DNA from: an uncultured Hormoscilla sp.
Lineage (GTDB): Bacteria > Cyanobacteriota > Cyanobacteriia > Cyanobacteriales > Desertifilaceae
Length of the DNA stretch: 64,000 nucleotides
Reading direction: 5' to 3'
Assembly (NCBI GenBank): GCA_963921275.4
Contig: OZ001293.3
Span: forward strand, 5,760,001-5,824,000
The notes beneath the pieces were generated by a model. It was not told where the DNA came from and searched no databases. It saw nothing but the letters and a program-made list of their open reading frames with translations. The position numbers were made by a program, and so were the translations under genes. Position 1 is the stretch's first letter. Every line of letters starts with the position of its first letter. This document shows, in pieces, positions 890 through 16,738 of this stretch.

Positions 890-2341
890 TTAAGTTTGCA
901 TCTTCGCCAAGGCAATTTGCCCCAGCAGTTCCCGGTTTACCTTACCCTGCCCATTGCGGGGTAAGCTGTCTACGGCGACCCAATGTTTAGGGCGTTTGTA
1001 CTTGCTTAATTTATCGGCGATCGCCCTTTGTAGCCGATCGATAGAAACGTGATCGGACTTGGGGACGTAGACAACTGTGACTACTTCACCCCATTGGACA
1101 TCAGGTAACCCGATCGCGCAGACATCACTCACCAACTCGGTTGCTAGCAATGCTGCTTCGACTTCAGCGGGAAAGACATTCTTTCCTCCGGTGATGATTT
1201 TGTGACTCTGACGTCCGACAATGTGCAAGTAACCCTGAGGATCGAAATAACCTATGTCATCCGTTCCCATGGAGAAGGCGGCCGATTGGGTTTCGATGTC
1301 TCCGCCATAGTAACCTAATGTTAGGGACTCAGCATCTATGGCGATCGCCCCAGTCTGGTTAACGTCCAGTCTTTCTCCATCCGGGCCAGTTATGGTAACT
1401 TGAGCATGGGGCAAAACCCGACCGCAACTGTTATTACCAGCCAGAAAATCTGCGGGTTTAAGAGTGACTATCCCAGATGCAGTTTCGGTCATCCCGTAGG
1501 TAAGGGCTAAGGGAATATTGTAGTTTCTAGCAGTTGACAGCAGAGAGTCCCAAGCAGGGGCCCCCCCCAAGAGAACAGTTTCAAACCGAGATAACCAACT
1601 ACTATGTTTTTCTAGCAATCTTTGCAGCTGGGTGGGTACGAGAGAAATAAAGAAATTAGTTACATCATTATTGCCGTCACCCGGGATCGACTTAAATGGC
1701 CGAATTACTAGCTTCCCGCCGGTAGTAAAGGAACGCAGGCACTGCATTAAGCCGCTGACGTGATCTAGGGGTAAGACACAGAAAGAATTAATCGCCGTTT
1801 TCCCAAAATACTGTTGAAATCCTTTCACAGATGCCATCAAGGTTTCCCAAGTATGGATGGCAAAGCGAATCTTTCCAGATGAACCCCCCGTGGGAATCAT
1901 GATTTGCACGGCTGGCGCCGCGCTGCCGCGAATGCGCTGCGCGCACGCTACGCGAACAGAAATCAGATCATTTTCAAAGCCCGCGCAGGCGGGCTTCGTT
2001 CCTGTAGCCCCACCCTTTAGGGTAGGGGTGGGGAATGGAAAAGAAGGTGGTTGTCCTAAGATTAGGTCGGGTTGAACGAGGTAAAATACTTGCTGCCATT
2101 CTTGTTCCACCCAATGGGGGTTACATAAAAAAACGGGACAATTAGCTGCCACCGCAGCAATGAACCCAGCTATAAATTTAACAGGTTCTGCTTCAGCTAG
2201 TAGAATAACAGGTGGTTTATCCTGCTGGGCGAATTTCTCGAATAACTCCTGACTTAGCTGAGTGAATTGGTGAGAGTTATCACTTATCAACCAATGATCG
2301 ACCAGACGCTTTTGCCACAGTTCCTTTAATGATTGTCCCAT
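890..2341 (-). CDS. menE: o-succinylbenzoate-CoA ligase, with in-frame repeat insertions
   Basis: PTGGSSG, TYGMTET and GRQSHKIITGG adenylate-forming enzyme motifs; men cluster context. Confidence 0.9.
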   Translation of the reverse strand: MGQSLKELWQKRLVDHWLISDNSHQFTQLSQELFEKFAQQDKPPVILLAEAEPVKFIAGFIAAVAANCPVFLCNPHWVEQEWQQVFYLVQPDLILGQPPSFPFPTPTLKGGATGTKPACAGFENDLISVRVACAQRIRGSAAPAVQIMIPTGGSSGKIRFAIHTWETLMASVKGFQQYFGKTAINSFCVLPLDHVSGLMQCLRSFTTGGKLVIRPFKSIPGDGNNDVTNFFISLVPTQLQRLLEKHSSWLSRFETVLLGGAPAWDSLLSTARNYNIPLALTYGMTETASGIVTLKPADFLAGNNSCGRVLPHAQVTITGPDGERLDVNQTGAIAIDAESLTLGYYGGDIETQSAAFSMGTDDIGYFDPQGYLHIVGRQSHKIITGGKNVFPAEVEAALLATELVSDVCAIGLPDVQWGEVVTVVYVPKSDHVSIDRLQRAIADKLSKYKRPKHWVAVDSLPRNGQGKVNRELLGQIALAKMQT

Positions 2342-3447
2342 AACTCTTTTAGCCAGTTGTTCTCATTCTCGGTAAACCATTGCTTGACGCCAAAACCAAC
2401 GGCTCTTTGATGTCTCCGGAGAGCGCTAGAAGCACTACTCCCGATGTGCGAATGCGCTGCGCGCACGCTGCGCGGACGCACATCTTCGGCGTCTTCCGCA
2501 TGCTCTTGTCCTGAAGGACGCGGCATGCTCCAGACACCGCGAAGACATCGATTACCTGTTTGTAGTTCGGCGGCTAGCTTTAAGGCCGCATTTCTGCCAA
2601 TGGCGGTTTCCATCACAGAGGAGAATACAATGTCGAGCGGGTGCGATCGGCAAAACTGACGCAAGCGGGATGGCGAACCCGCGATCGCCGCTTTAATTAC
2701 AAATATGGATCGCCAACCTCGATGATAACAGGTTTCGAGGCGATCGAGAGTTGCCACCGATTCATCTAAGGCGATGGGAGTAGCATACTGTTCAGACAAT
2801 TCTTGCATCTCTTCAAACTTTTCTACTCCTAGGGGTTGTTCCATAAATTCTACAGCTTTACCTTCACAAGCATCTAGCCACTGACAAGCTTCTTCCCAGG
2901 TAAGTCCACCATTAGCATCCAAGCGCAATTTTGTCCCCAGCGGCAGTTCTTTTCTCAGTAAGCCAAATATTTTCAGTTCTTCAGCAATGGGAATAACGCC
3001 TATTTTCCACTTAAATGTCCGATATCCCTGATGCCAGAAACCTAGCCATGACTGCAAACTTTCTGGTCCAGCTGGTAACAAGCAGCTATAGGTAAGACTG
3101 TCCTCCTGTAAGCCCGCGCAGGCTGGCTTCGTTCCTGTAGCCCCACCTGTTAGGGTGGGGGTCTCAAAGCCAAACTGACAGGCAGGTAAATCATCAGGGA
3201 TTGCCTTAATGATATCGGATGTTATTTCTGATGGCAAATCAGAGCAGAATGAGTGGCTTTGTTCGCAAGTTTCCGAACCAAACCAGGGTAAAGGGGCAAT
3301 TTCTCCCCAACCGACTTTCCCAGTTGCATCCGTGAGGCGAATAATGATGCCTTGGCGGACATTCCAGCTGCCGTGACTGGTAGTAAGCGATCGCCTAAAT
3401 TTTCGCTGGTAGGGACGAAACTCAAATTGGTAAGCTCCAGCCATCAT
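2326..3447 (-). CDS. menC: o-succinylbenzoate synthase, with in-frame repeat insertions
   Basis: Enolase superfamily motifs KWKIG, LRLDANGG, EQP, ALDES; ATG at 3447 overlaps the menA stop codon. Confidence 0.9.
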   Translation of the reverse strand: MMAGAYQFEFRPYQRKFRRSLTTSHGSWNVRQGIIIRLTDATGKVGWGEIAPLPWFGSETCEQSHSFCSDLPSEITSDIIKAIPDDLPACQFGFETPTLTGGATGTKPACAGLQEDSLTYSCLLPAGPESLQSWLGFWHQGYRTFKWKIGVIPIAEELKIFGLLRKELPLGTKLRLDANGGLTWEEACQWLDACEGKAVEFMEQPLGVEKFEEMQELSEQYATPIALDESVATLDRLETCYHRGWRSIFVIKAAIAGSPSRLRQFCRSHPLDIVFSSVMETAIGRNAALKLAAELQTGNRCLRGVWSMPRPSGQEHAEDAEDVRPRSVRAAHSHIGSSASSALRRHQRAVGFGVKQWFTENENNWLKELWDNH

Positions 3448-4349
3448 CCTCCTGACACCCAGAAACCAATACCTAACAACAGTCCGCTCCAGAAATGCAA
3501 TTCTATCGCCATAAATTTGCAATTTTTCACCATTTCCGGTTGGTCATGATGAGTACCTACATGGCGGCAAAGCTTGAACGCTGCGGGCAAACTTAAGAAG
3601 CTGAGTAAAGTCCACAAGGGGAATATCCCCCAGATTACCAAAATAGCGATCAGGGTAAAGATGCTGCCACAAAACCACCATAACAGCTGTGCCCCGGTTT
3701 GCGTACCCAGGCGGACGATCGGTGATCGCTTTCCTGCTGCCAGATCGTCTTGGACTTGATGAAAATGGGAACAAAACAGGATTAAAGTAGTAGTCAGGCC
3801 GACAATTATCGAAATTGCCAGATTAATCAGGGACCAACTCTGAGTTTGACTGTAGTAAGCAGCGGATAACGCTATGGGTCCAAAGGCAAAAAAGCAGAGA
3901 ATCTCGCCCAAACCTTGGTAACCTAGACGAAAGGGCGGACCTTGATACATATATCCGAGGGCGCAGCAGGCAAGGATTAACCCCATCGCCGTTAAATCTT
4001 GCTGCCACCAACAGATTAACATAATTTCCAGAATGCCGAGGGCTAAACAAAGATTACCTAACCAGAAAATTAAAGATTTGTTGCCCGTCAGGTTAACCAG
4101 GGAATGGTGTTTATTTCGATCGATCCCAGTCTCTGAGTCAAATACGTCGTTACTGATATTCTCCCAGGCCAGAATGAAAATTGCCCCACTGACAAAGGTG
4201 GCAAATAGCCACCAATCTATGCTGTGCCGCTCAAAAACAGCCACCGAAGTTCCTACCCAAATTGGCATGATTGCTACGCTATACATGGGCGGTTTAATCG
4301 CCGCTAGCCATAATTTTCTGTTCGATCGCTCAATTGTCTGATTAGTCAT
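3444..4349 (-). CDS. menA: DHNA phytyltransferase (UbiA family)
   Basis: AAIKPPMYSVA, NDVFD and D-rich QDDLAAGKRS motifs; multiple transmembrane segments. Confidence 0.92.
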   Translation of the reverse strand: MTNQTIERSNRKLWLAAIKPPMYSVAIMPIWVGTSVAVFERHSIDWWLFATFVSGAIFILAWENISNDVFDSETGIDRNKHHSLVNLTGNKSLIFWLGNLCLALGILEIMLICWWQQDLTAMGLILACCALGYMYQGPPFRLGYQGLGEILCFFAFGPIALSAAYYSQTQSWSLINLAISIIVGLTTTLILFCSHFHQVQDDLAAGKRSPIVRLGTQTGAQLLWWFCGSIFTLIAILVIWGIFPLWTLLSFLSLPAAFKLCRHVGTHHDQPEMVKNCKFMAIELHFWSGLLLGIGFWVSGG

Positions 4350-4533: not shown

Positions 4534-6883
4534 TTACACGAAGAGAGGAGAGTATAGTAGACCGCCTTCGGTGATGACACCGGAGCCGATCGGGGGGGTG
4601 TCGGGGAAGGGAAAGTTGCGATCATAAATCTCTTGCCAGTTGCCTACAGATGAGATGGCGTCTACGACAAAGTCATCCCTTAGACTTAGGCGAAAGCCTA
4701 GGTCTCCTGTTACTCCTAAGAAACGCCGGATAGCTGGATCGTCGCTATTTAGGAAGTCATTGACATTTTCTGAGGTAATGCCAAATTCTGCTGCTTGGAT
4801 GGTTGCATAAACTGTCCAAGTGACTATGTCCTTCCACTCTGATTGGTTTTCATCGACTATCACCGCCAGGGGTTCTTTTGATAAGCCTGTTACAATCGCC
4901 CGCGAGGGTATACGTTCCCCGGCAGGAACGTTTAAGGCCAGGGACTGGATGAAGCTACCATCACCTGTGATGGCGTCTACTTCTCGATTTTGATAGGCAT
5001 CGTTTAGTTCGGTCGGGCTGTCAAAGGTGACTAGGTTGAGGGTTATGCCATATTCGTCGGCTGCCTCTTGGATGTTCAGTTCGGAGGTTGTATCGGCGAT
5101 TACCCCGACATCGCGACCGTCCAAATCTTCAAAGGAGTTGAGGGTGCTCTCGAGAGGGGCCCATAATATTTGACTGTCGTAAAGGGTAACTGGTCCATAG
5201 TCTATGCCTAGGAGGGCGTCGCGTCCTAGGGTATATGTGAGGGCCCGGGCGGCGACGTCTACTATGCCGTTGGCGACGTCGCTAAACCGGTTTTCTGGTT
5301 CTGAGACTACAAATTCTACGGCTTTGGGGTCGCCGAATACTGCGGCTGCGATCGCGCGTCCGTAGTCAACGTCAAACCCGGTGTATTCTCCGTTTTGTAA
5401 TAAGCCTAGACCGGGCGCGGACCCTGGTACTCCTACGCGGACGTGGCCCCGGGCGAGGATTTCTTCCAGGACGTTGCGATCGTTGTTATTGATTATTGGG
5501 GTATTGGGCGGGGCTGTCCCGGTGAAGGGTGGGGAGTAGATCAGGCCCCCACGGCTGGCGCCGCGCTATCGCGAACGGTCCATACTTGGTTCTGGCCGCG
5601 AGGCATGATTTCCTCGTTGAAGTTGCGGGCGTAGATTTCCCCGTAGTTCCCTACTTTTTCGATGATGTTGACTATGAAGTTGTTGTCCAGGCCCAGGGCT
5701 GTGCCGAATTGGCTTTGGGTGTTTAGGAACCGTGCGATCGCGGGGTCTGGGCTGTTGAGATGGTCTTGGATGTTGTCGGATGTGATACCTAGTTCTTCAG
5801 CTTGAAAAGTAGCGTGGATGGTCGAGTTTACTATATCAGCGAAGTCTGATTGGTTTTCAGGGATGATAAATCAGACAGTGTCCCGGGAGAGCACGTCGTC
5901 TAGTATCTGGTGGTCATCGGGATTGGGGAGGCGGGGGATGATGCTGGCCAGGAGTGCGCGGCTGCCGATGGATAAGGCATCAATTTCTTGGGCTAAGTAG
6001 GCGCGCAGCATGGCGCTGACTGTCGGAAGCTGGTTATGGAGACTGCTACATCAGCGTCTTGCGAGGCGTCTGCCAGGCTTTGACCGGCTGTGGAGTCTTG
6101 GATTACTCCCACCGTGAGTCCGTCTAGGTCGGTGATGGAGGCGATGCCGCTGTTGACTGGGGCGAGTATACCTGCTCCGTCGTGGAAGATGGGAGTGCTG
6201 TAGTCTATGTTCTGGCTAGCGTCGCGGGTCAGGGTTTGGGCGGCGGCGGATAGGTCTACGGCCCCGGTTGCGACGTTGCCGAAGCTTTGGGCGAATTCCT
6301 GTGCTTGGTAGCGGATAGCTTGGGGGTCGTTGAATAGGGCTACAGCTATGGCCCGGCTGACGTCGATCGCCAGTCCGCTGTAGGAGCCGGAAGAGTCGGC
6401 GGTGCTTAGCCCCGGGAAGTCAACGCTGGCGCCGGCCCGCAGGTAGCCGCGTTCCCGTATCTGGTCTAGGAGTGAGATGGGGGCCGGTTCTTCTGGGGGT
6501 TCTATTATGAAGTTTGCGGGGGTTAGAGTCCGGGCCTGGGTGTTTCGGAGTATAGCCACGTCTTCCCTGCGAAGTTGTATGACCGTGTCAGGGCCTATTT
6601 GTTCCACTCTCATGGAGTTGATTTCCCCCAGAGAGTAACCCCGGATTTGGATGATGTCTCTTGTCTGCCTGTACTCGGGAAATTCCTGGGGTTGCTGGGG
6701 CGGGGTTGTACTGTCGGGCAGTCGCAGGGTAAATATGCGGGATGGGTCGGAGGTATCGGATTCATCTGTTGTTAGAGGTTGGGCTTCATTCATGGCGGCC
6801 TGGAAGTTATGTTCTGTGTTCATGGATGGGTTGTTTGCTGTTGTATGGTTGATTACGAAACCGAAGGAGTCTGTGGATGACAT
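4534..6883 (-). pseudogene. Tandem two-domain amino acid ABC substrate-binding protein (AapJ-like), broken by two -1 frameshifts
   Basis: Two family-3 SBP domains, each ending in GGL(I/L)YSP; frame breaks near 6024 and at the C5 run 5546-5550; the frame is open between and around these points. Confidence 0.75.
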
Positions 6884-8452: not shown

Positions 8453-8968
8453 CCTTAGTAGCTGCTCTAACTCAGGTATTATAATAGATTTTGTCAATTG
8501 CGATCGCCCGCTCTAGTCGCACTACCCGGGGGACATCGTAATCGCACTACCCAGGAGACACCGCTAGGTAATTGACAGCCATTGTATTATTATGTAGTAG
8601 CGGCGACCCAACCCCATAGATGTCACGGACTTCTCGACCGTCGTAGTGTCCTGGCAGATGGCTGCCCTTCCCTGTCTCAGAACTTACGCTGCTCAAACTG
8701 TTATACAATACCGTTCGCCTCGAAAGCAGCCGGGGCCGCCCACCATATTAGCCTCTGCTCTATTCTCGATTTTCCCTTGACCATTATCATGCTTTAATAC
8801 CAAAACACGGGCATTTATTGCCCTTCGATATCCCCCAGAGGGGACGCGCCTTAAGCACTACCCAAGAGATATCGAAGCCTCCTGTGTCCTCTATCTAGTC
8901 GAACAATCTGCGTTCTACTGTTAAGAGTGAGAAATATAACTTCACAAAACTTTACCTTATCGGCCCAG

Positions 8969-10501
8969 ATGAGAGTCACCTCCGAGCACGGGAATATATT
9001 TTCAGAACCAAAGGTTCTGGAAAATTTTCTGTTAGGTTGTCAAGAAACAGCTATTGCTAAAGATAGTACAATGATTGTCAGCATATCGCAAGAGATTCCC
9101 CTAGTGGACCCCCTGGCGATAATGGCAGCGATCGCCCCTTCGGAGCGACTGCAGTTTTACTGGGAAAGCGCAGGGGAGGCGATCGCTGCCATTGATGCTG
9201 CCACAAGTATAAAGATAACCCAGGCCGATCGATTCAGAAAAGCCCAAGAATTTATTCATACATGTCTGGCAAATACGATTAGCATTGGCGATCTAGATCG
9301 CCGGTTTGCTGGCCCGCATTTTTTTTGCAGTTTCACATTTTTTGGACAGCAGTCGGAGTCAGTTTTTCCAGCAGCAACAGTGTTTTTACCACGTTTACAG
9401 GTAGCTTGTAGCGCCAAACATTGTATCTTAGTGACGAATTTAGCGATCAGTCTAGGAGCGGACATTAAAAGCATATGCTCAAAGTTATGGTGGGACTGGC
9501 ATAAAATTAGTTTATGCAATAATAACGGATTCCATAAAGCCGCAGGAAATAAATTGCCAAGTGGACAATTATCAGATTACTGTGTCCCTCGGGTAGTGCA
9601 ACTAGCGCTCCCGGGGGACACAGAAGATAAATTCAAGCAGGCGGTGGGTGAAGCATTAGAGTTGATTCGCTCGGAAAGATTGAGTAAAATAGTGATCGCC
9701 CATGGGATCGAGATCCAAGCTAAAGTACCATTTGGGGAGAGAGAAGCGCTGCATAATTTACGCCAGCTCCATGGAGATTGCCATATATTTATGGTAAGTA
9801 ATGGTGAAGGAAAGAGTTTTATCGGGGCGACGCCAGAAAGGTTAATGAGGATTCGGTGTGTTCCGGACAGTGCGATGAGCGCGCTGTGTCCCTCGAGTAG
9901 TGCGACTAGCGCTCCCGGGGGACACAGTTCCGGGACAGAGAATCAGCAGCTATTCACAGAGGCATTAGCCGGTTCAGCACCTCGGGGAAAAACGAGAAGG
10001 GAAGATGCAGATTTTGCCAATAGTTTACTCGCTAGCGAAAAAGAAAGACGGGAACACCAATTTGTGATAGATTATATTAAAGGATGTTTATGGAGGTTGG
10101 GTTTAAGGCCGGAAATATTGCCAATGCCAAAGTTACGAAAACTAGCGAATATCCAACATTTGTGGACCCCGATCGAGGCAAAAGTGCCTCCAGGAGTGCA
10201 TCCTTTGTCAATACTGGCAGCATTGCATCCGACGCCAGCGGTGGCGGGTACGCCCAGAGAAATAGCCTGCCAGGAAATACCTAGGTATGAAAGCTTCGAT
10301 CGGGGTTTATATGCCGCGCCCTTGGGTTGGGTAGATGGACGCGGAAATAGCGAGTTTGTGGTAGGAATTAGGTCAGCGCTGATAGAGGGCGATCGGGCGA
10401 CAGTTTATGCGGGTGCGGGTATAGTAGCCGGTTCCGATCCGGAGAAAGAACTGGCAGAAATTCAGCTGAAATTTCAAGCATTGTTGCAAGCGTTAGTATA
10501 A
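8969..10501 (+). CDS. menF: Isochorismate synthase, with in-frame repeat insertions
   Basis: GATPERL, ALAGSAPRG, KERREH, LHPTPAVAG, RGLYAAPLGW and AGAGIV motifs; alternative GTG start at 8927. Confidence 0.93.
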   Translation: MRVTSEHGNIFSEPKVLENFLLGCQETAIAKDSTMIVSISQEIPLVDPLAIMAAIAPSERLQFYWESAGEAIAAIDAATSIKITQADRFRKAQEFIHTCLANTISIGDLDRRFAGPHFFCSFTFFGQQSESVFPAATVFLPRLQVACSAKHCILVTNLAISLGADIKSICSKLWWDWHKISLCNNNGFHKAAGNKLPSGQLSDYCVPRVVQLALPGDTEDKFKQAVGEALELIRSERLSKIVIAHGIEIQAKVPFGEREALHNLRQLHGDCHIFMVSNGEGKSFIGATPERLMRIRCVPDSAMSALCPSSSATSAPGGHSSGTENQQLFTEALAGSAPRGKTRREDADFANSLLASEKERREHQFVIDYIKGCLWRLGLRPEILPMPKLRKLANIQHLWTPIEAKVPPGVHPLSILAALHPTPAVAGTPREIACQEIPRYESFDRGLYAAPLGWVDGRGNSEFVVGIRSALIEGDRATVYAGAGIVAGSDPEKELAEIQLKFQALLQALV

Positions 10502-12088: not shown

Positions 12089-13945
12089 ATGCTCTTATTC
12101 CGCAATGTAAATTTAGTTTGGGCTTCAATTTTAGCAGAAACATTAAAGCGACTGGGATTGAAAACGGCGATCGCCTGTCCGGGTTCGCGCTCAACCCCCC
12201 TGACGGTAGCTTTTGCCCAAAACCCCCAAATCGAAGCTATTCCAGTGTTGGACGAACGTTCAGCGGCCTTTTTTGCCCTAGGAATTGCCAAGGGAACGGG
12301 ATTGCCAGTAGCATTGGTTTGTACTTCGGGAACGGCGGGTGCGAACTTTTATCCAGCAGCGATCGAGGCACGAGAAAGTCGAGTACCTCTATTGATTTTA
12401 ACAGCTGATCGCCCTCCGGAACTGCGGAACTGCCATGCCGGACAGGCGATCGACCAAGTAAAATTATATGGCAATTACCCGAACTGGCAAGCCGAGTTAG
12501 CATTGCCATCATTAGAAATGGAAATGTTAGCATATCTGCGACAAACAGTAATTCATGCCTGGGAATGTACCCTGTTTCCTACCCCTGGGGTAGTCCATCT
12601 GAATGTACCATTTCGCGACCCCCTCGCCCCCATCCCACAACCAGAAGCAGAAGCATTAAAATCCGAGTTTTCCGAAGTTGATTTCTTCACAGGAATAGCC
12701 AACATCGATCCAACTCTTTTGCCCGCGCAGGCGGGCTTTGTTCCTGTAGCCCCACCCTTGAGGGTGGGGGTGGCTGCGTGCACAGGGCTACGCCTACGCG
12801 ATCGGGGCATAATTATTGCTGGGGTAGCGCAACCGAGGTGGGCGAAAGAGTATGTTTTGGCGATCGCCCATCTTTCGGAAGCATTAAAGTTCCCGGTATT
12901 AGCAGAAGGACTCTCACCTGTGAGGAACTACGCCCATCTGAATCCTAATATAATTTCCACCTACGACATCATTCTGAGAAATGAACAGTTAGCAGAAAAA
13001 CTCGCCCCAGAAATTGTCATCCAGATTGGAAATTTTCCCACCAGCAAGCAACTCCGGGCCTGGTTAACAGGGAAAAAGCCGCCAACTTGGGTCATAGACC
13101 CCAGTCATCACAACCTGGACCCCATTCATGGTCAAGCAATTCACCTGCGCACATCCATAGAAAATCTTTGTGCTACAATTGAGTCAGGTCAGATGGAGAC
13201 TTCCCCTTACCTGGAAGAATGGTCTGATGCGGAAAAGAAGGTGAGAGAGTCCTTAGACCCAACCCTGGCAGAGATAGATTATTTATTTGAAGGCAAAGCA
13301 GCATGGTTACTATCCCAGACCTTGCCCCCAGGAACGCCGATATTTATTGCCAACAGCATGCCAGTCAGGGATGTCGAATATTTCTGGAAACCAAACAACC
13401 TGGAAATCCAACCCTTCTTCAACCGGGGTGCCAATGGCATTGACGGCAGCTTATCTACCGCTTTGGGGATTGCCCATTCGATGTCTCCTGGAAGCGCTAC
13501 ATGCGCTGCGCGCACCGGGCTACGCCTGCGCGATCGCACTACCCAGGAGACATCTCGGCATCAACCCTGTGTTATGCTAACGGGAGACTTGGCCTTATTG
13601 CACGATAGCAATGGTTTTTTGCTCTCGAATAAACTTGTGGGACATTTGACCATAATCTTGATTAATAATCGAGGAGGTGGTATATTTGAGATGCTGCCCA
13701 TCTCCCAATTCGATCCGCCCTTTGAAGAGTTCTTTGCTACGCCCCAGGAGATTGACTTTGCCCAGCTATGTCCTGCTTATAATGTAGAATATGAATTGAT
13801 TGCAGGGTGGGAACAGCTGCAGGAAAGGTTAAATCCATTACCGGAAACAGGGAGGCGGGTGTTAGAGTTGCGGACTTCTAGAAAGGCAGATGCTAAGTGG
13901 CGTAAGGAGAATTTGGAGAAGTTGGCAGCGATGTCTCCGGAGTAG
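12089..13945 (+). CDS. menD: SEPHCHC synthase, with in-frame repeat insertions
   Basis: CPGSRSTPL, DERSAAFFALG, CTSGTA, NRGANGIDG and TGDLA...NNRGGGIF motifs. Confidence 0.95.
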   Translation: MLLFRNVNLVWASILAETLKRLGLKTAIACPGSRSTPLTVAFAQNPQIEAIPVLDERSAAFFALGIAKGTGLPVALVCTSGTAGANFYPAAIEARESRVPLLILTADRPPELRNCHAGQAIDQVKLYGNYPNWQAELALPSLEMEMLAYLRQTVIHAWECTLFPTPGVVHLNVPFRDPLAPIPQPEAEALKSEFSEVDFFTGIANIDPTLLPAQAGFVPVAPPLRVGVAACTGLRLRDRGIIIAGVAQPRWAKEYVLAIAHLSEALKFPVLAEGLSPVRNYAHLNPNIISTYDIILRNEQLAEKLAPEIVIQIGNFPTSKQLRAWLTGKKPPTWVIDPSHHNLDPIHGQAIHLRTSIENLCATIESGQMETSPYLEEWSDAEKKVRESLDPTLAEIDYLFEGKAAWLLSQTLPPGTPIFIANSMPVRDVEYFWKPNNLEIQPFFNRGANGIDGSLSTALGIAHSMSPGSATCAARTGLRLRDRTTQETSRHQPCVMLTGDLALLHDSNGFLLSNKLVGHLTIILINNRGGGIFEMLPISQFDPPFEEFFATPQEIDFAQLCPAYNVEYELIAGWEQLQERLNPLPETGRRVLELRTSRKADAKWRKENLEKLAAMSPE

Positions 13946-14097: not shown

Positions 14098-14934
14098 GTG
14101 CGATTCGTTCTAGTCTAACGTGTTCAAACGCGGAACGCTAGCCTAAGAAACTAGTAACTCTGGTATTCATGGGGTTAAATTCCGCCTCCCCAAGTACGGA
14201 GGTAACTCCGGTTGGAGGTGCTGCGAAATAACATCATCGTGGTGCTAAGCGAGAACTTAAATGTAGGATAGCTGGCAGTCTAAGCTGGTGACTCCGCGCT
14301 CGATGATGTCCAAGGTTAGAACAAGCAAACCTATAGAAGCCTCATTACCTCAAACCGGCGAAATAAGGCTTTATGCGCCGGGGACAAAAGTCAGCGTAGT
14401 TAGTGTTAGTCTTTGTTGTTGGCTAACATCGTACTCAAAGAACTACCGGGGTAGAGTAGGGACCTAAAGGCATCGCGCTCCGGAGACCAGGGAACGAAGT
14501 AACCCCTCGTGAGCTGTCCGTGAGGACCAGTCAGATGTGAAGCGTAAGCCACGAGTGGGAGCCCAAGCCTGCCCCCAAGAAGCAAATGCCTGGGGTAATG
14601 CTTAGGATACGCCGACGTGCGGTGAGGGTGGGTGATAGTAGGAAGTCTCAGGTGAAAGTAACTCTAGATACGTTATAAGCCCGTCACTTCGGTGATTGAG
14701 GAATAGATTACTGGTAAAACGGACGCGATAATAGGTGATACTAAAGGTTTTCCGGCAGCGCCACTCACCAACCAGGAAAGGAGCGAAATTGCATGAGATA
14801 AGGGACAAAGGGAGTAATCCAAAAGTTACCTACCAATGACTTGGGCCTACTACCCAGTAGCCGGATGCGGTGAAAGTCGCTCTTTAGGTTCCGAACGGGA
14901 GGGTTCCGAAGCGATTCCCAGCTCGACCCCTAAT
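14098..14934 (+). ncRNA. ORF-less group II intron (IIB-like), domain V partly degenerate
   Basis: 5' GTGCGATTCGTTCTAG; 3' CGACCCCTAAT; colinear homolog of 7171-8040; candidate EBS1 TAATGC (14596-14601) complements the 5' flank GCATTA. Confidence 0.85.
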
Positions 14935-15340
14935 CCGATTCCAGATACCATCACCTCGGGCACCGATCTAAACAATGACGACCTGTTCGGCAACCAAATC
15001 ACCGGCACGATCAACTTACCTCCTACCGACCTCAACCTCAGCAACAGCAGCATTGATGAAAACTTCCCAGAAAATAGCCTCGTGGGGACTTTCTCCACTA
15101 CCGACCCCAACTCGGGAGATAGCTTTACCTACCAGCTAGTCTCCGGCGTTGGTGACGATGATAACGCCGCCTTCACCATAGCAGGGGACCAACTGCTAAT
15201 TAACAGTTATAAGGACTTTGAGACAAAATCGAGTTACAGCATCCTCCTCCAGACTACCGACGCTGCTGGGGCCAGTCACTCGGAGGCCTTGACTATTAAT
15301 GTCAACGATGTTCCCCCCTCTCTTACCGACCTCAACCTCA
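14935..15340 (+). pseudogene. Cadherin-like repeat fragment of a large surface protein
   Basis: PTDLNLSNSSIDEN...DFETKSSYSI...INVND cadherin signature; truncated by the IS110 remnant. Confidence 0.75.
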
Positions 15341-15674
15341 GCAAAGCCACATCGAAAAAATCTTTGGCAATGTCTATACCGAGGGCTGGTAGATTCATAT
15401 GGCCTCTTTTCCTTGACTGGTGATGTTTCCTGAGTTCACTGGTGATGTTAGCAGTTGCGACCGGTGCAGGGTAGAAATGTTTTTCTAGCAACCACCCTTG
15501 TGAATACGAGTTCATCTGTGTTACAGAGACTCCAGATCCCATCCGGTTGTCTAGTAAAAACACGAACGCCGTCGGTGTCTAGATCTGCGCGACAGGTTCA
15601 ATTGACCTCTGGCGGGCTATGGACTTGCCGATAGCTTTCTACCCTGATGTCCCTTCTCTATTCCAACATACAAG
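15339..15674 (-). mobile_element. IS110-family left-end remnant (noncoding end plus about 20 codons of recombinase)
   Basis: ATG at 15398 gives MNLPALGIDIAKDFFDVALL (RuvC-like GID motif of IS110); the end reads CT-TGTAT at 15674. Confidence 0.8.
15465..15650 (-). ncRNA. IS110 bridge RNA (IS621-like)
   Basis: Closing stem CAGGGTAGAAA/TTTCTACCCTG; motifs AACCTGTCGCGCAGAT, AACCGGATGGGATC and CGTATTCACAAGGGTGGTT match the IS621 target- and donor-loop scaffold as I recall it. Confidence 0.75.
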
Positions 15675-15747
15675 GCAAGCTTTGTTCGTGTAGCCTCAGG
15701 CTAAAGCCTGGAGGTGAGGGTGACTGAATGCTGAACGCTAAAGGAAA

Positions 15748-16623
15748 TTATCCCTTAGCTCTTACCAGTGGTAACCCTAAAGTTTCCCGCTGCTCCAGGT
15801 ACAGTTGAGCAACCCGTCGGGCCAAATTGCGAATTCGGCCAATGTAACGAGTCCGTTCTGTCACCGAAATCACCCCTCGCGCATCCAACAAATTAAAGCT
15901 GTGGGAACACTTCAATACATAGTCAAGACTCGGCAACACCAGGCCTCGCTGAGTCAGTTGCTCCGCCTCCTGCTCGTATAGGCCAAACAGAGTAAACAGT
16001 AGATCGGGATTAGATGCCTCAAAGTTATAGGTACTTTGCTCCACCTCTCCCTGGAGGTGAACGTCTCCATAGGTAACGCTGTCAGTCCAGCGAATCTTGG
16101 TGAACGCATCTGTTTCCTGAAGATACATTGTCAGTCGCTCCAGGCCATAGGTGAGTTCAATTGAAACTGGACGACAATCAATCCCGCCGCACTGCTGGAA
16201 GTAGGTAAGTTGGGTAATTTCCATCCCATCAAGCCAGACTTCCCAGCCCACGCCCCAGGCCCCCAAGGTCGGAGACTCCCAGTTATCCTCCACAAACCGG
16301 ATATCATGCTCGGACGGACGCACTCCTAAAGCCCGCAATGATTCCAGATACATCTCTTGGATATTATCTGGTGAAGGCTTAATCAGCACCTGGTACTGGT
16401 AGTAATGTTGATGGCGATTGGGATTTTCCCCGTAACGTCCATCCGTAGGCCGGCGGCAGGGCTCGACATAGGCCACTGACCACGGTTCAGGCCCGATCGC
16501 TCGCAAGAAAGTATGGGGACTCATGGTGCCAGCACCCTTTTCCGTATCGTAGGGCTGGGCGATCAGGCAGCCCCGATCGGCCCAGAACCGGTGCAACGTA
16601 GCAATCACAGACTGAAAATTCAC
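15748..16623 (-). CDS. glyQ: Glycine-tRNA ligase alpha subunit
   Basis: [36 protein letters not shown] and TYGLERL motifs. Confidence 0.97.
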
Positions 16624-16738
16624 AGAGATTTAGCCTCCACGAAAAAAAAAATTTATTTTTTTTGAGCCCCAAACCTGCTCTGTGACTAGGTTTCAGAGTA
16701 TAGATCAAAAAAAGTTCCCAAAAAACCTTAAAAAAGGG

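Follow-up and report, generated by a model that had tools for sequence, protein, structure and literature searches.

IS621, an IS110 element that encodes its bridge RNA in a left end upstream of a recombinase with DEDD and serine motifs, recombines at a CT core and targets a REP-like palindrome (PMC11208160 and PMC11208158). Its RNA has two loops with left and right guides, a GT linker, AT handshake bases, and a split right donor guide. The right donor reads TGTAT, and the -35 and -10 boxes lie in the right and the left end, respectively. The element of the cyanobacterium Hormoscilla described here shares this organization, with the RNA and promoter as predictions. Unlike IS621, it has its core in the 4-nt loop of a palindrome and not at a CTAC foot, with AGCCCGC-CT-GCGCG as target; a 7-nt match of the right target guide, known in IS621 as an engineered extension, occurs in it naturally; the ninth bases of its left target guide (A) and left donor guide (T) mirror those of IS621; there is partial complementarity between its two target guides; and the copy in the window lacks the recombinase and the right end. 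The recombinase of this family is also homologous to the ISCro4 bridge recombinase (PDB 9t56; E = 1.7e-65).

That IS110 elements target REPs is already established. ISPpu9, ISPpu10, ISPa11, and ISRm19 occupy one fixed point in a palindromic repeat of the host, mostly outside genes, and truncated or recombinase-less derivatives of such elements, among them the ssr9 module, have been published, as has insertion at the palindrome axis by other IS families (PMC1525189; bioRxiv 10.1101/2025.01.17.633520; bioRxiv 10.64898/2026.03.19.712850). The Hormoscilla element is like these on both counts but has another host, repeat, and core, and whereas ssr9 keeps both ends and forms circles, the remnant has one end. 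Its target repeat, a hairpin with a GTAG/CTAC foot followed by a short linker and a second palindrome, is like the GTAG-tagged cyanobacterial REPs, of which copies inside genes are known (Di Nocera 2013, PMC3733652). Other cyanobacterial IS621-like IS110s share the RNA scaffold and the right donor TGTAT; they differ in their left donor, which is ACAGTAT or ACAGCAT and not the ATAGGAT of Hormoscilla. One literature search returned no dedicated description of bridge RNAs in the cyanobacterial phylum, and no published description of the Hormoscilla element was found in the literature searched, including a term search in parts of the Durrant 2024 supplements. The element is a clean new example of the mechanism described in 2024 and opens no new mechanism.

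Left end of an IS621-like element downstream of glyQ

The window is a 64,000-nt stretch of the genome of an uncultured Hormoscilla sp. (G000, 96.7% complete). Its positions 15399-15674, minus strand, constitute an IS621-like IS110 left end, 75 nt past the stop codon of glyQ and on the strand of that gene. Along that strand, the order is hairpin, CTAC, linker, AGCTTGC, CT, 275 nt of noncoding DNA, and ATG, with the following features.

15748-16623, minus strand: glyQ, the upstream gene (TIGR00388 over cut-off)
15675-15722, minus strand: left half of the interrupted composite repeat, with hairpin (15714-15694), CTAC foot (15693-15690), linker, and left target AGCTTGC (15681-15675)
15673-15674, minus strand: CT core and left junction; CT ends all 15 left and 5 right junctions
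15665-15672, minus strand: right donor TGTAT (15672-15668), and TATGTT (15670-15665) as the predicted -10 box, read from the sequence, with the junction promoter principle from PMC11208158
15568-15634, minus strand: predicted target-binding loop region, from an anchored comparison of 13 elements, with the scaffold as in IS621
15610-15618, minus strand: left target guide AGCCCGCC(A), its ninth base A and not T
15585-15591, minus strand: right target guide CGCGCAG, complementary to CT-GCGCG; the handshake bases AT come next (15584-15583; numbering from PMC11208158)
15482-15558, minus strand: predicted donor-binding loop, with left donor guide ATGGGATCT (15542-15534) and right donor guide ATTCACAAG (15505-15497)
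15339-15398, minus strand: first 20 codons of the IS110 recombinase, GIDIAK motif included; the frame breaks at a shared 6-nt word
14836-15344, plus strand: cadherin-like repeat remnant fused to the broken recombinase, outside the element (PF00028, E = 4.4e-4, under cut-off; many genomic paralogues)

The noncoding part extends over 275 nt from the CT core (15674-15673) to the recombinase ATG (15398), the same as in relatives. An earlier note on this DNA had described a structured noncoding end of about 190 nt; the noncoding end is there and is 275 nt long, and when folded as a single sequence it shows no unusual stability (z = -1.38; donor loop -2.2, target loop -1.0). The recombinase start reads MNLPALGIDIAKDFFDVALL, and after codon 20 its frame enters the cadherin-like DNA of the opposite strand through the shared word (15344-15339). 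The locus has one end only, the right end and nearly all of the recombinase being gone. The note had also placed the element end against the right half of a degenerate repeat copy. A half-copy does adjoin it, and in the orientation of the element this is the left half, AGCTTGC, which has two mismatches to the guide and reads AGCCCGC in the orthologue in a second Hormoscilla genome, G148. The positions that the note gave for the left guide (AGCCCGCC, 15618-15611), for GCGCAG (15590-15585), and for the CT core all hold, and the layout it proposed, a truncated IS110 start behind a bridge RNA left end, is borne out in Hormoscilla by the junctions, the guide matches, and recombinase homology, all detailed below.

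Among contigs from four DNA runs of one study, one covers 15590-16638 without differences, so the junction of glyQ with the left end is supported; at 98% identity, none of these contigs covered the right breakpoint region, 15280-15373. No terminator-like site was found after glyQ within 15300-15900, and glyQ is a possible source of read-through transcription into the remnant. Fragments of group II intron 3′ ends (Rfam RF00029, E = 0.11) lie at 14856-14921 of the window (plus strand) and near 1850960 on G000:C1 and have many copies; one of them adjoins another element copy (copy D) at recombinase codon 11-12.

Copies and junctions in Hormoscilla genomes

G000 contains three left ends (that in the window and those at C1:6451595 and C1:255820), one right-end copy near C1:1849980, and one middle remnant. 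Twelve further left ends were found in G148, G229, and G243; there were none in G213 and G004, and a control with the reversed pattern gave 0. By flank comparison, the 15 left junctions (three in G000, 12 in G148, G229, and G243) represent nine sites in four Hormoscilla genomes. Thirteen of the 15 read AGCCCGC|CT. The two inexact ones are both in G000, with two mismatches in the window and one in copy C; since the orthologous junctions are exact, these mismatches are likely changes that followed insertion. All five recognizable right junctions read ATAGGAT|CT|GCGCGGGCT, the right flank completing the palindrome; copy B, whose right end is partly deleted, was left out of this scoring. Four copies have both ends, and the CT core is present at every junction (15 left, five right). 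The tabulated flanks thus put the insertions at the site that the guides spell, and not at unrelated sites.

Downstream of glyQ, the remnant is present in G148 and absent in three of four relatives. In place of the element, G213 has an intact repeat and G229 and G243 have a variant repeat; since the neighboring hairpin differs in all three genomes, we regard these as repeats at the same position and not as proven empty alleles. A DNA search for the left end in 301 genomes of the order gave real matches within the genus only, in three of four relatives. The junction pattern AGCCCGCCTTGTA had 13 of its 16 matches within the genus, and the other three had no RNA-model match. A metagenome scan for the start of the left end gave two matches, both unrelated on reading. 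The three G000 left ends are 87-95% identical and broken at different points; they are not two-ended miniatures of the ssr9 or MITE kind. The other copies are broken in many different ways.

Several of the damaged copies have features of their own. The same 50-nt GTAG hairpin shifts the recombinase ATG out of frame at codon 5-6 in L057 (G229:C23), L059 (G148:C154), and L065 (G229:C48), which occupy three different sites; within the hairpin, a GTG follows GAGG in frame, and L059 retains an otherwise whole recombinase frame. Copy C and L062 break at the same codon. This hairpin family adjoins TCGG and has 10 copies in G000. Its recurrence at codon 5-6 could be due to a hotspot, to conversion, or to movement of copies that had already gained the hairpin, and is ambiguous as to whether the frameshifted copies were mobilized in trans. 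In copy C (L025, G000:C1:253770-255820), two passenger ORFs of 216 and 222 aa replace the 5′ half of the recombinase (compare L063 and L064); the 216-aa ORF has a weak nucleotidyltransferase-like match, below cut-off. G229 and G243 match the copy C region and its MBOAT flank at 98-99% identity, and glyQ four-fold sites differ by 31%, a pattern in the aligned DNA that suggests recent exchange of this region between G000, G229, and G243.

Guides of the predicted loops for target and donor binding

Loop positions were taken from the IS621 description in PMC11208158 and the scaffold from supplement rows of PMC11208160, which carry reprogrammed guides. In the window, the order is that of IS621: the left guide AGCCCGCCA of 9 nt, a single-base linker, a stem of 4 bp in which an A is flipped, GT, CGCGCAG, and AT. 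From its position in this order, CGCGCAG is the right guide, of 7 nt, giving a target of 14 bp, AGCCCGC-CT-GCGCG. The earlier note had read the left guide correctly and the right guide as GCGCAG, one base short of the 7 nt at 15591-15585; the target it predicted, AGCCCGC-CT-GCGC, is confirmed and extended by one base and matches the flanks of the insertion sites. Both guides fall within an IS621-type target-binding loop, match the insertion site, and vary with it among elements.

The inner stem of the target loop is paired in 51 of 52 cells across 13 elements, with alternative pairs at each position, a count that depends on anchors set by hand. An RNAalifold consensus recovered the donor loop, with a compensatory change in 12 of 14 pairs, and did not recover the target loop, whose alignment columns were off by one. 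Rfam returned no matching family for a bridge RNA and two weak group II intron matches under the gathering score. A covariance model built from the 13 elements found seven of 13 further loci outside its training set; it also matched two left ends of another IS110 family in G000. The guide-target score of the window is 12/12 plus 3/3 extension bases, and none of 300 shuffled left ends reached 12. The ninth base of the left target guide (window 15610) is A in 10/10 aligned Hormoscilla left ends and T in 8/8 other cyanobacterial elements; that of the left donor guide (window 15534) is T in most Hormoscilla copies. In two independent copies, L007 (copy B) and L062, the left target guide is replaced, in part or whole, by the HIP1 word GCGATCGC.

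The donor in the genomes is ATAGGAT-CT-TGTAT. The prediction of ATGGGAT-CT-TGT was nearly right and one base off. The left donor guide of the window is predicted to pair with ATAGGAT with one G-T wobble, and guides match the joined ends at 12/12 in L057 and L059 and at 11.5/12 in the window copy. Across the joined ends, TTGACA lies 17-18 nt before TATGTT, a pattern in the sequence that we take as predicted -35 and -10 boxes; the TTGACA belongs to the right end and is absent at the window locus. The handshake bases also fit, with AT facing positions 7 and 6 of the donor and G facing position 7 of the target (numbering from PMC11208158).

The target palindrome in the genome and in the men genes

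The target is the apex of an 18-bp palindrome. Its exact 14-mer, AGCCCGCCTGCGCG, has 107 copies on the chromosome against 0.03 expected. Within the window alone, three sites have at most two mismatches, which is not above chance (shuffles average 1.2, and 13/100 reach 3). In 91 of the 107 copies, CTAC stands 12 nt before the palindrome; this foot belongs to a hairpin, with a short linker between. The repeat may resemble the SDR5 repeats. Of 301 genomes of the order, 48 contain the exact 18-mer, and among the genomes searched the element was found only in this genus; a single recombinase query gave no match in five genomes rich in the same palindrome. Three genomes of genus g62 (G146, G294, and G129) have 202-454 exact copies of the 18-bp palindrome each and no recombinase match, also with one query.

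Three copies of the palindrome lie inside men genes of the window.

1978-1995, minus strand: target palindrome, all 18 bp perfect, in frame within a variable linker of menE
3111-3128, minus strand: target palindrome with one mismatch, inside menC
12720-12737, minus strand: target palindrome with the 14-mer exact, inside menD

The 13-mer occurrences listed in the earlier note stand: exact in menE (1983-1995) and menD (12725-12737), and with one mismatch in menC (3116-3128). The menC and menD genes scored over cut-off and the menE-like gene at 615 bits, just under its cut-off of 640. Several other short in-frame insertions are present in menE, menC, menF, and menD (window 890-3522, 8927-10501, and 12089-13945).

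The proposal that this IS110 is specialized on the repeat is supported by the junction table and the guide-flank match. The further proposal, that repeat copies within coding genes serve as landing pads, found no support, since none of nine insertion sites lies in a long open frame (P = 0.21); the test is weak because few targets are in open frames of at least 150 codons (17/107, versus 316/600 random positions, open frames being a rough proxy for genes). The same comparison places the repeat mostly outside genes. At four rebuilt empty sites, no frame exceeded 115 codons. An apparent coding insertion at L064, in a 479-codon frame, was rejected, since the frame comes from reading through a frameshifted MBOAT gene, and in G000 the orthologue of that gene ends ahead of the repeat; the count of 0/9 sets this read-through aside. 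To judge from the match of coding copies to the guide, insertion there could occur, and no such insertion was seen.

Proposed mechanism and state of this copy

By analogy with IS621, an active element would excise as a circle, joining its ends. The circle junction would rebuild the promoter (TTGACA plus TATGTT), from which the bridge RNA would be made and bind the DEDD and serine recombinase. The target loop is predicted to open the palindrome apex, where AGCCCGC would pair with the bottom strand of AGCCCGC-CT-GCGCG and CGCGCAG with its top strand; the donor loop would pair with the circle junction ATAGGAT-CT-TGTAT; the recombinase would then exchange strands at CT. The layout, the junctions, the fit of guides to flanks, and the breakage are seen in the DNA itself; RNA, circle, promoter, and chemistry are inferred from IS621.

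One surviving recombinase frame has all catalytic motifs. In L008 (G148), the frame is full, with PF01548 and PF02371 and the DEDD and serine motifs, and matches the IS621 recombinase (PDB 8wt6) at E = 2.6e-69 and that of ISCro4 at 1.7e-65; its domains place L008 in the IS621-like group of IS110, and the window copy retains the first 20 codons of such a frame. No whole IS110 recombinase was found in G000, where PF01548 has one match with two stops, PF02371 has four partial matches, and tblastn pieces occur at six places. Nor did we find in G000 an element with both ends intact that could serve as donor, and neither the window copy nor its genome combines an intact recombinase with both ends. 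Since its genome yielded no intact recombinase gene, this copy is likely dead. We are highly confident in reading the remnant as what is left of an IS621-like IS110 element lying in the loop of a host palindrome downstream of glyQ: its left end, with the right end and the recombinase past codon 20 lost, and probably an inert fossil.

A reading in which the match of guides and repeat is due to chance or to alignment by eye, and the flank coincidental, is almost certainly wrong. It can draw on the two-mismatch count in the window, which is within chance, on the two mismatches in the window's left flank, and on three foreign left ends (L013, L015, and L016) that score 11/12 against this target; the junction table refutes it, with 13/15 left and 5/5 right junctions exact at independent sites, and it is also opposed by the 0/300 shuffles and by the seven loci that the 13-element covariance model found outside its training set. 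Very improbable, too, is that selection has kept the remnant as a host RNA element unrelated to recombination, for example one that stabilizes the 3′ end of the glyQ transcript. The remnant does follow glyQ, 75 nt past its stop and on its strand, is also present in G148, and is less diverged there (8/265 bases of the left end) than are glyQ four-fold sites (23/141; P = 5e-6). However, it is absent from the site in three of four relatives, its fold is not unusually stable, and its conservation is flat (5/182 differences in the RNA part and 3/83 in the non-RNA 3′ part; P = 0.71) and within the range of other G148-G000 flanks, which are 93-99% identical. We rejected selection on the RNA as unproven because the non-RNA part is equally conserved and other flanks are similarly identical. 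A single large change in the G148 left end removes the left guide.

The earlier note had suggested that the surviving RNA might still guide a recombinase in trans. On that account, the orphan RNA would still be made through glyQ read-through and would direct a trans-supplied recombinase to the repeat, gene copies included, with insertions or rearrangements as the outcome. All four guides in the window still fit target and donor, no terminator-like site was found after glyQ, and the L008 frame retains all catalytic motifs; the bridge RNA of IS621 works in trans (PMC11208160), and its read-through transcripts can supply working bridge RNA (PMC13626964). DNA also moves between Hormoscilla genomes (98-99% identity at site C and in its flank, against a 31% difference at glyQ four-fold sites). 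Against this stand the failure to find a whole recombinase or a donor element with both ends intact in G000, the missing -35 box, the loss of the left guide in the G148 orthologue and its alteration in copy B, and the 0/9 insertion sites in long open frames. We found the suggestion unsupported and give it very little credence, and we hold to the reading of an inert fossil.

Guides and targets of other cyanobacterial IS110 elements

Other cyanobacterial IS621-like IS110s were found (L012, L013, L015-L019, L026, and L051), with about 46-53% recombinase identity. Eight other cyanobacterial IS110s have both junctions, and seven of them score 11-12/12 against their own, different flanks; L017 scores 9. 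This scoring left out L014, L020, L026, and L050 (junction missing or not called) and the distant L021-L024, and related elements in it are not independent. That three foreign left ends reach 11/12 against the Hormoscilla target indicates that short guides can cross-match. In seven of the eight scored elements, the right guide has GTAG and the insertion site is a CTAC foot; in the Hormoscilla family, the right guide has GCAG and insertion is in the palindrome loop, 12 nt beyond such a foot.

The Hormoscilla element adds one natural bridge RNA, predicted, with fully readable guides. Three small features of it are useful for bridge editing: the right guide is naturally 7 nt long, the ninth base of the left target guide is unpaired, and the target sits at the apex of a palindrome. 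If orphan bridge RNAs do guide in trans in nature, dead insertion sequences would still steer genome rearrangement. A broader conjecture is that cyanobacterial IS110 copies share their bridge RNAs, recombinase-less left ends that are read through from a host gene acting as a reservoir of guides that redirects compatible incoming recombinases to the repeat, including its in-frame copies in housekeeping genes; we consider this very unlikely. The nearest hint of shared guides comes from outside the window, in G021, where L017/L082 sits in a site spelled by the guide of L084/L085.

L017/L082 (G021:C20, left junction near 5859) is an intact IS110 with a 331-aa frame and the left target guide GAAACCCCT, yet it sits in ACCGCGA|CT, the site that the guide of another G021 IS110 (L084, L085) spells exactly. 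This single mismatched case may be one of guidance in trans, or the element may be a hybrid. The second IS110 family in G000 is represented by two left ends, L107 (C1:410655-410832) and L108 (C1:4100273-4100450), with the left guide CGTGCCCCT and a right guide with GTAG; each is preceded by a group II intron end.
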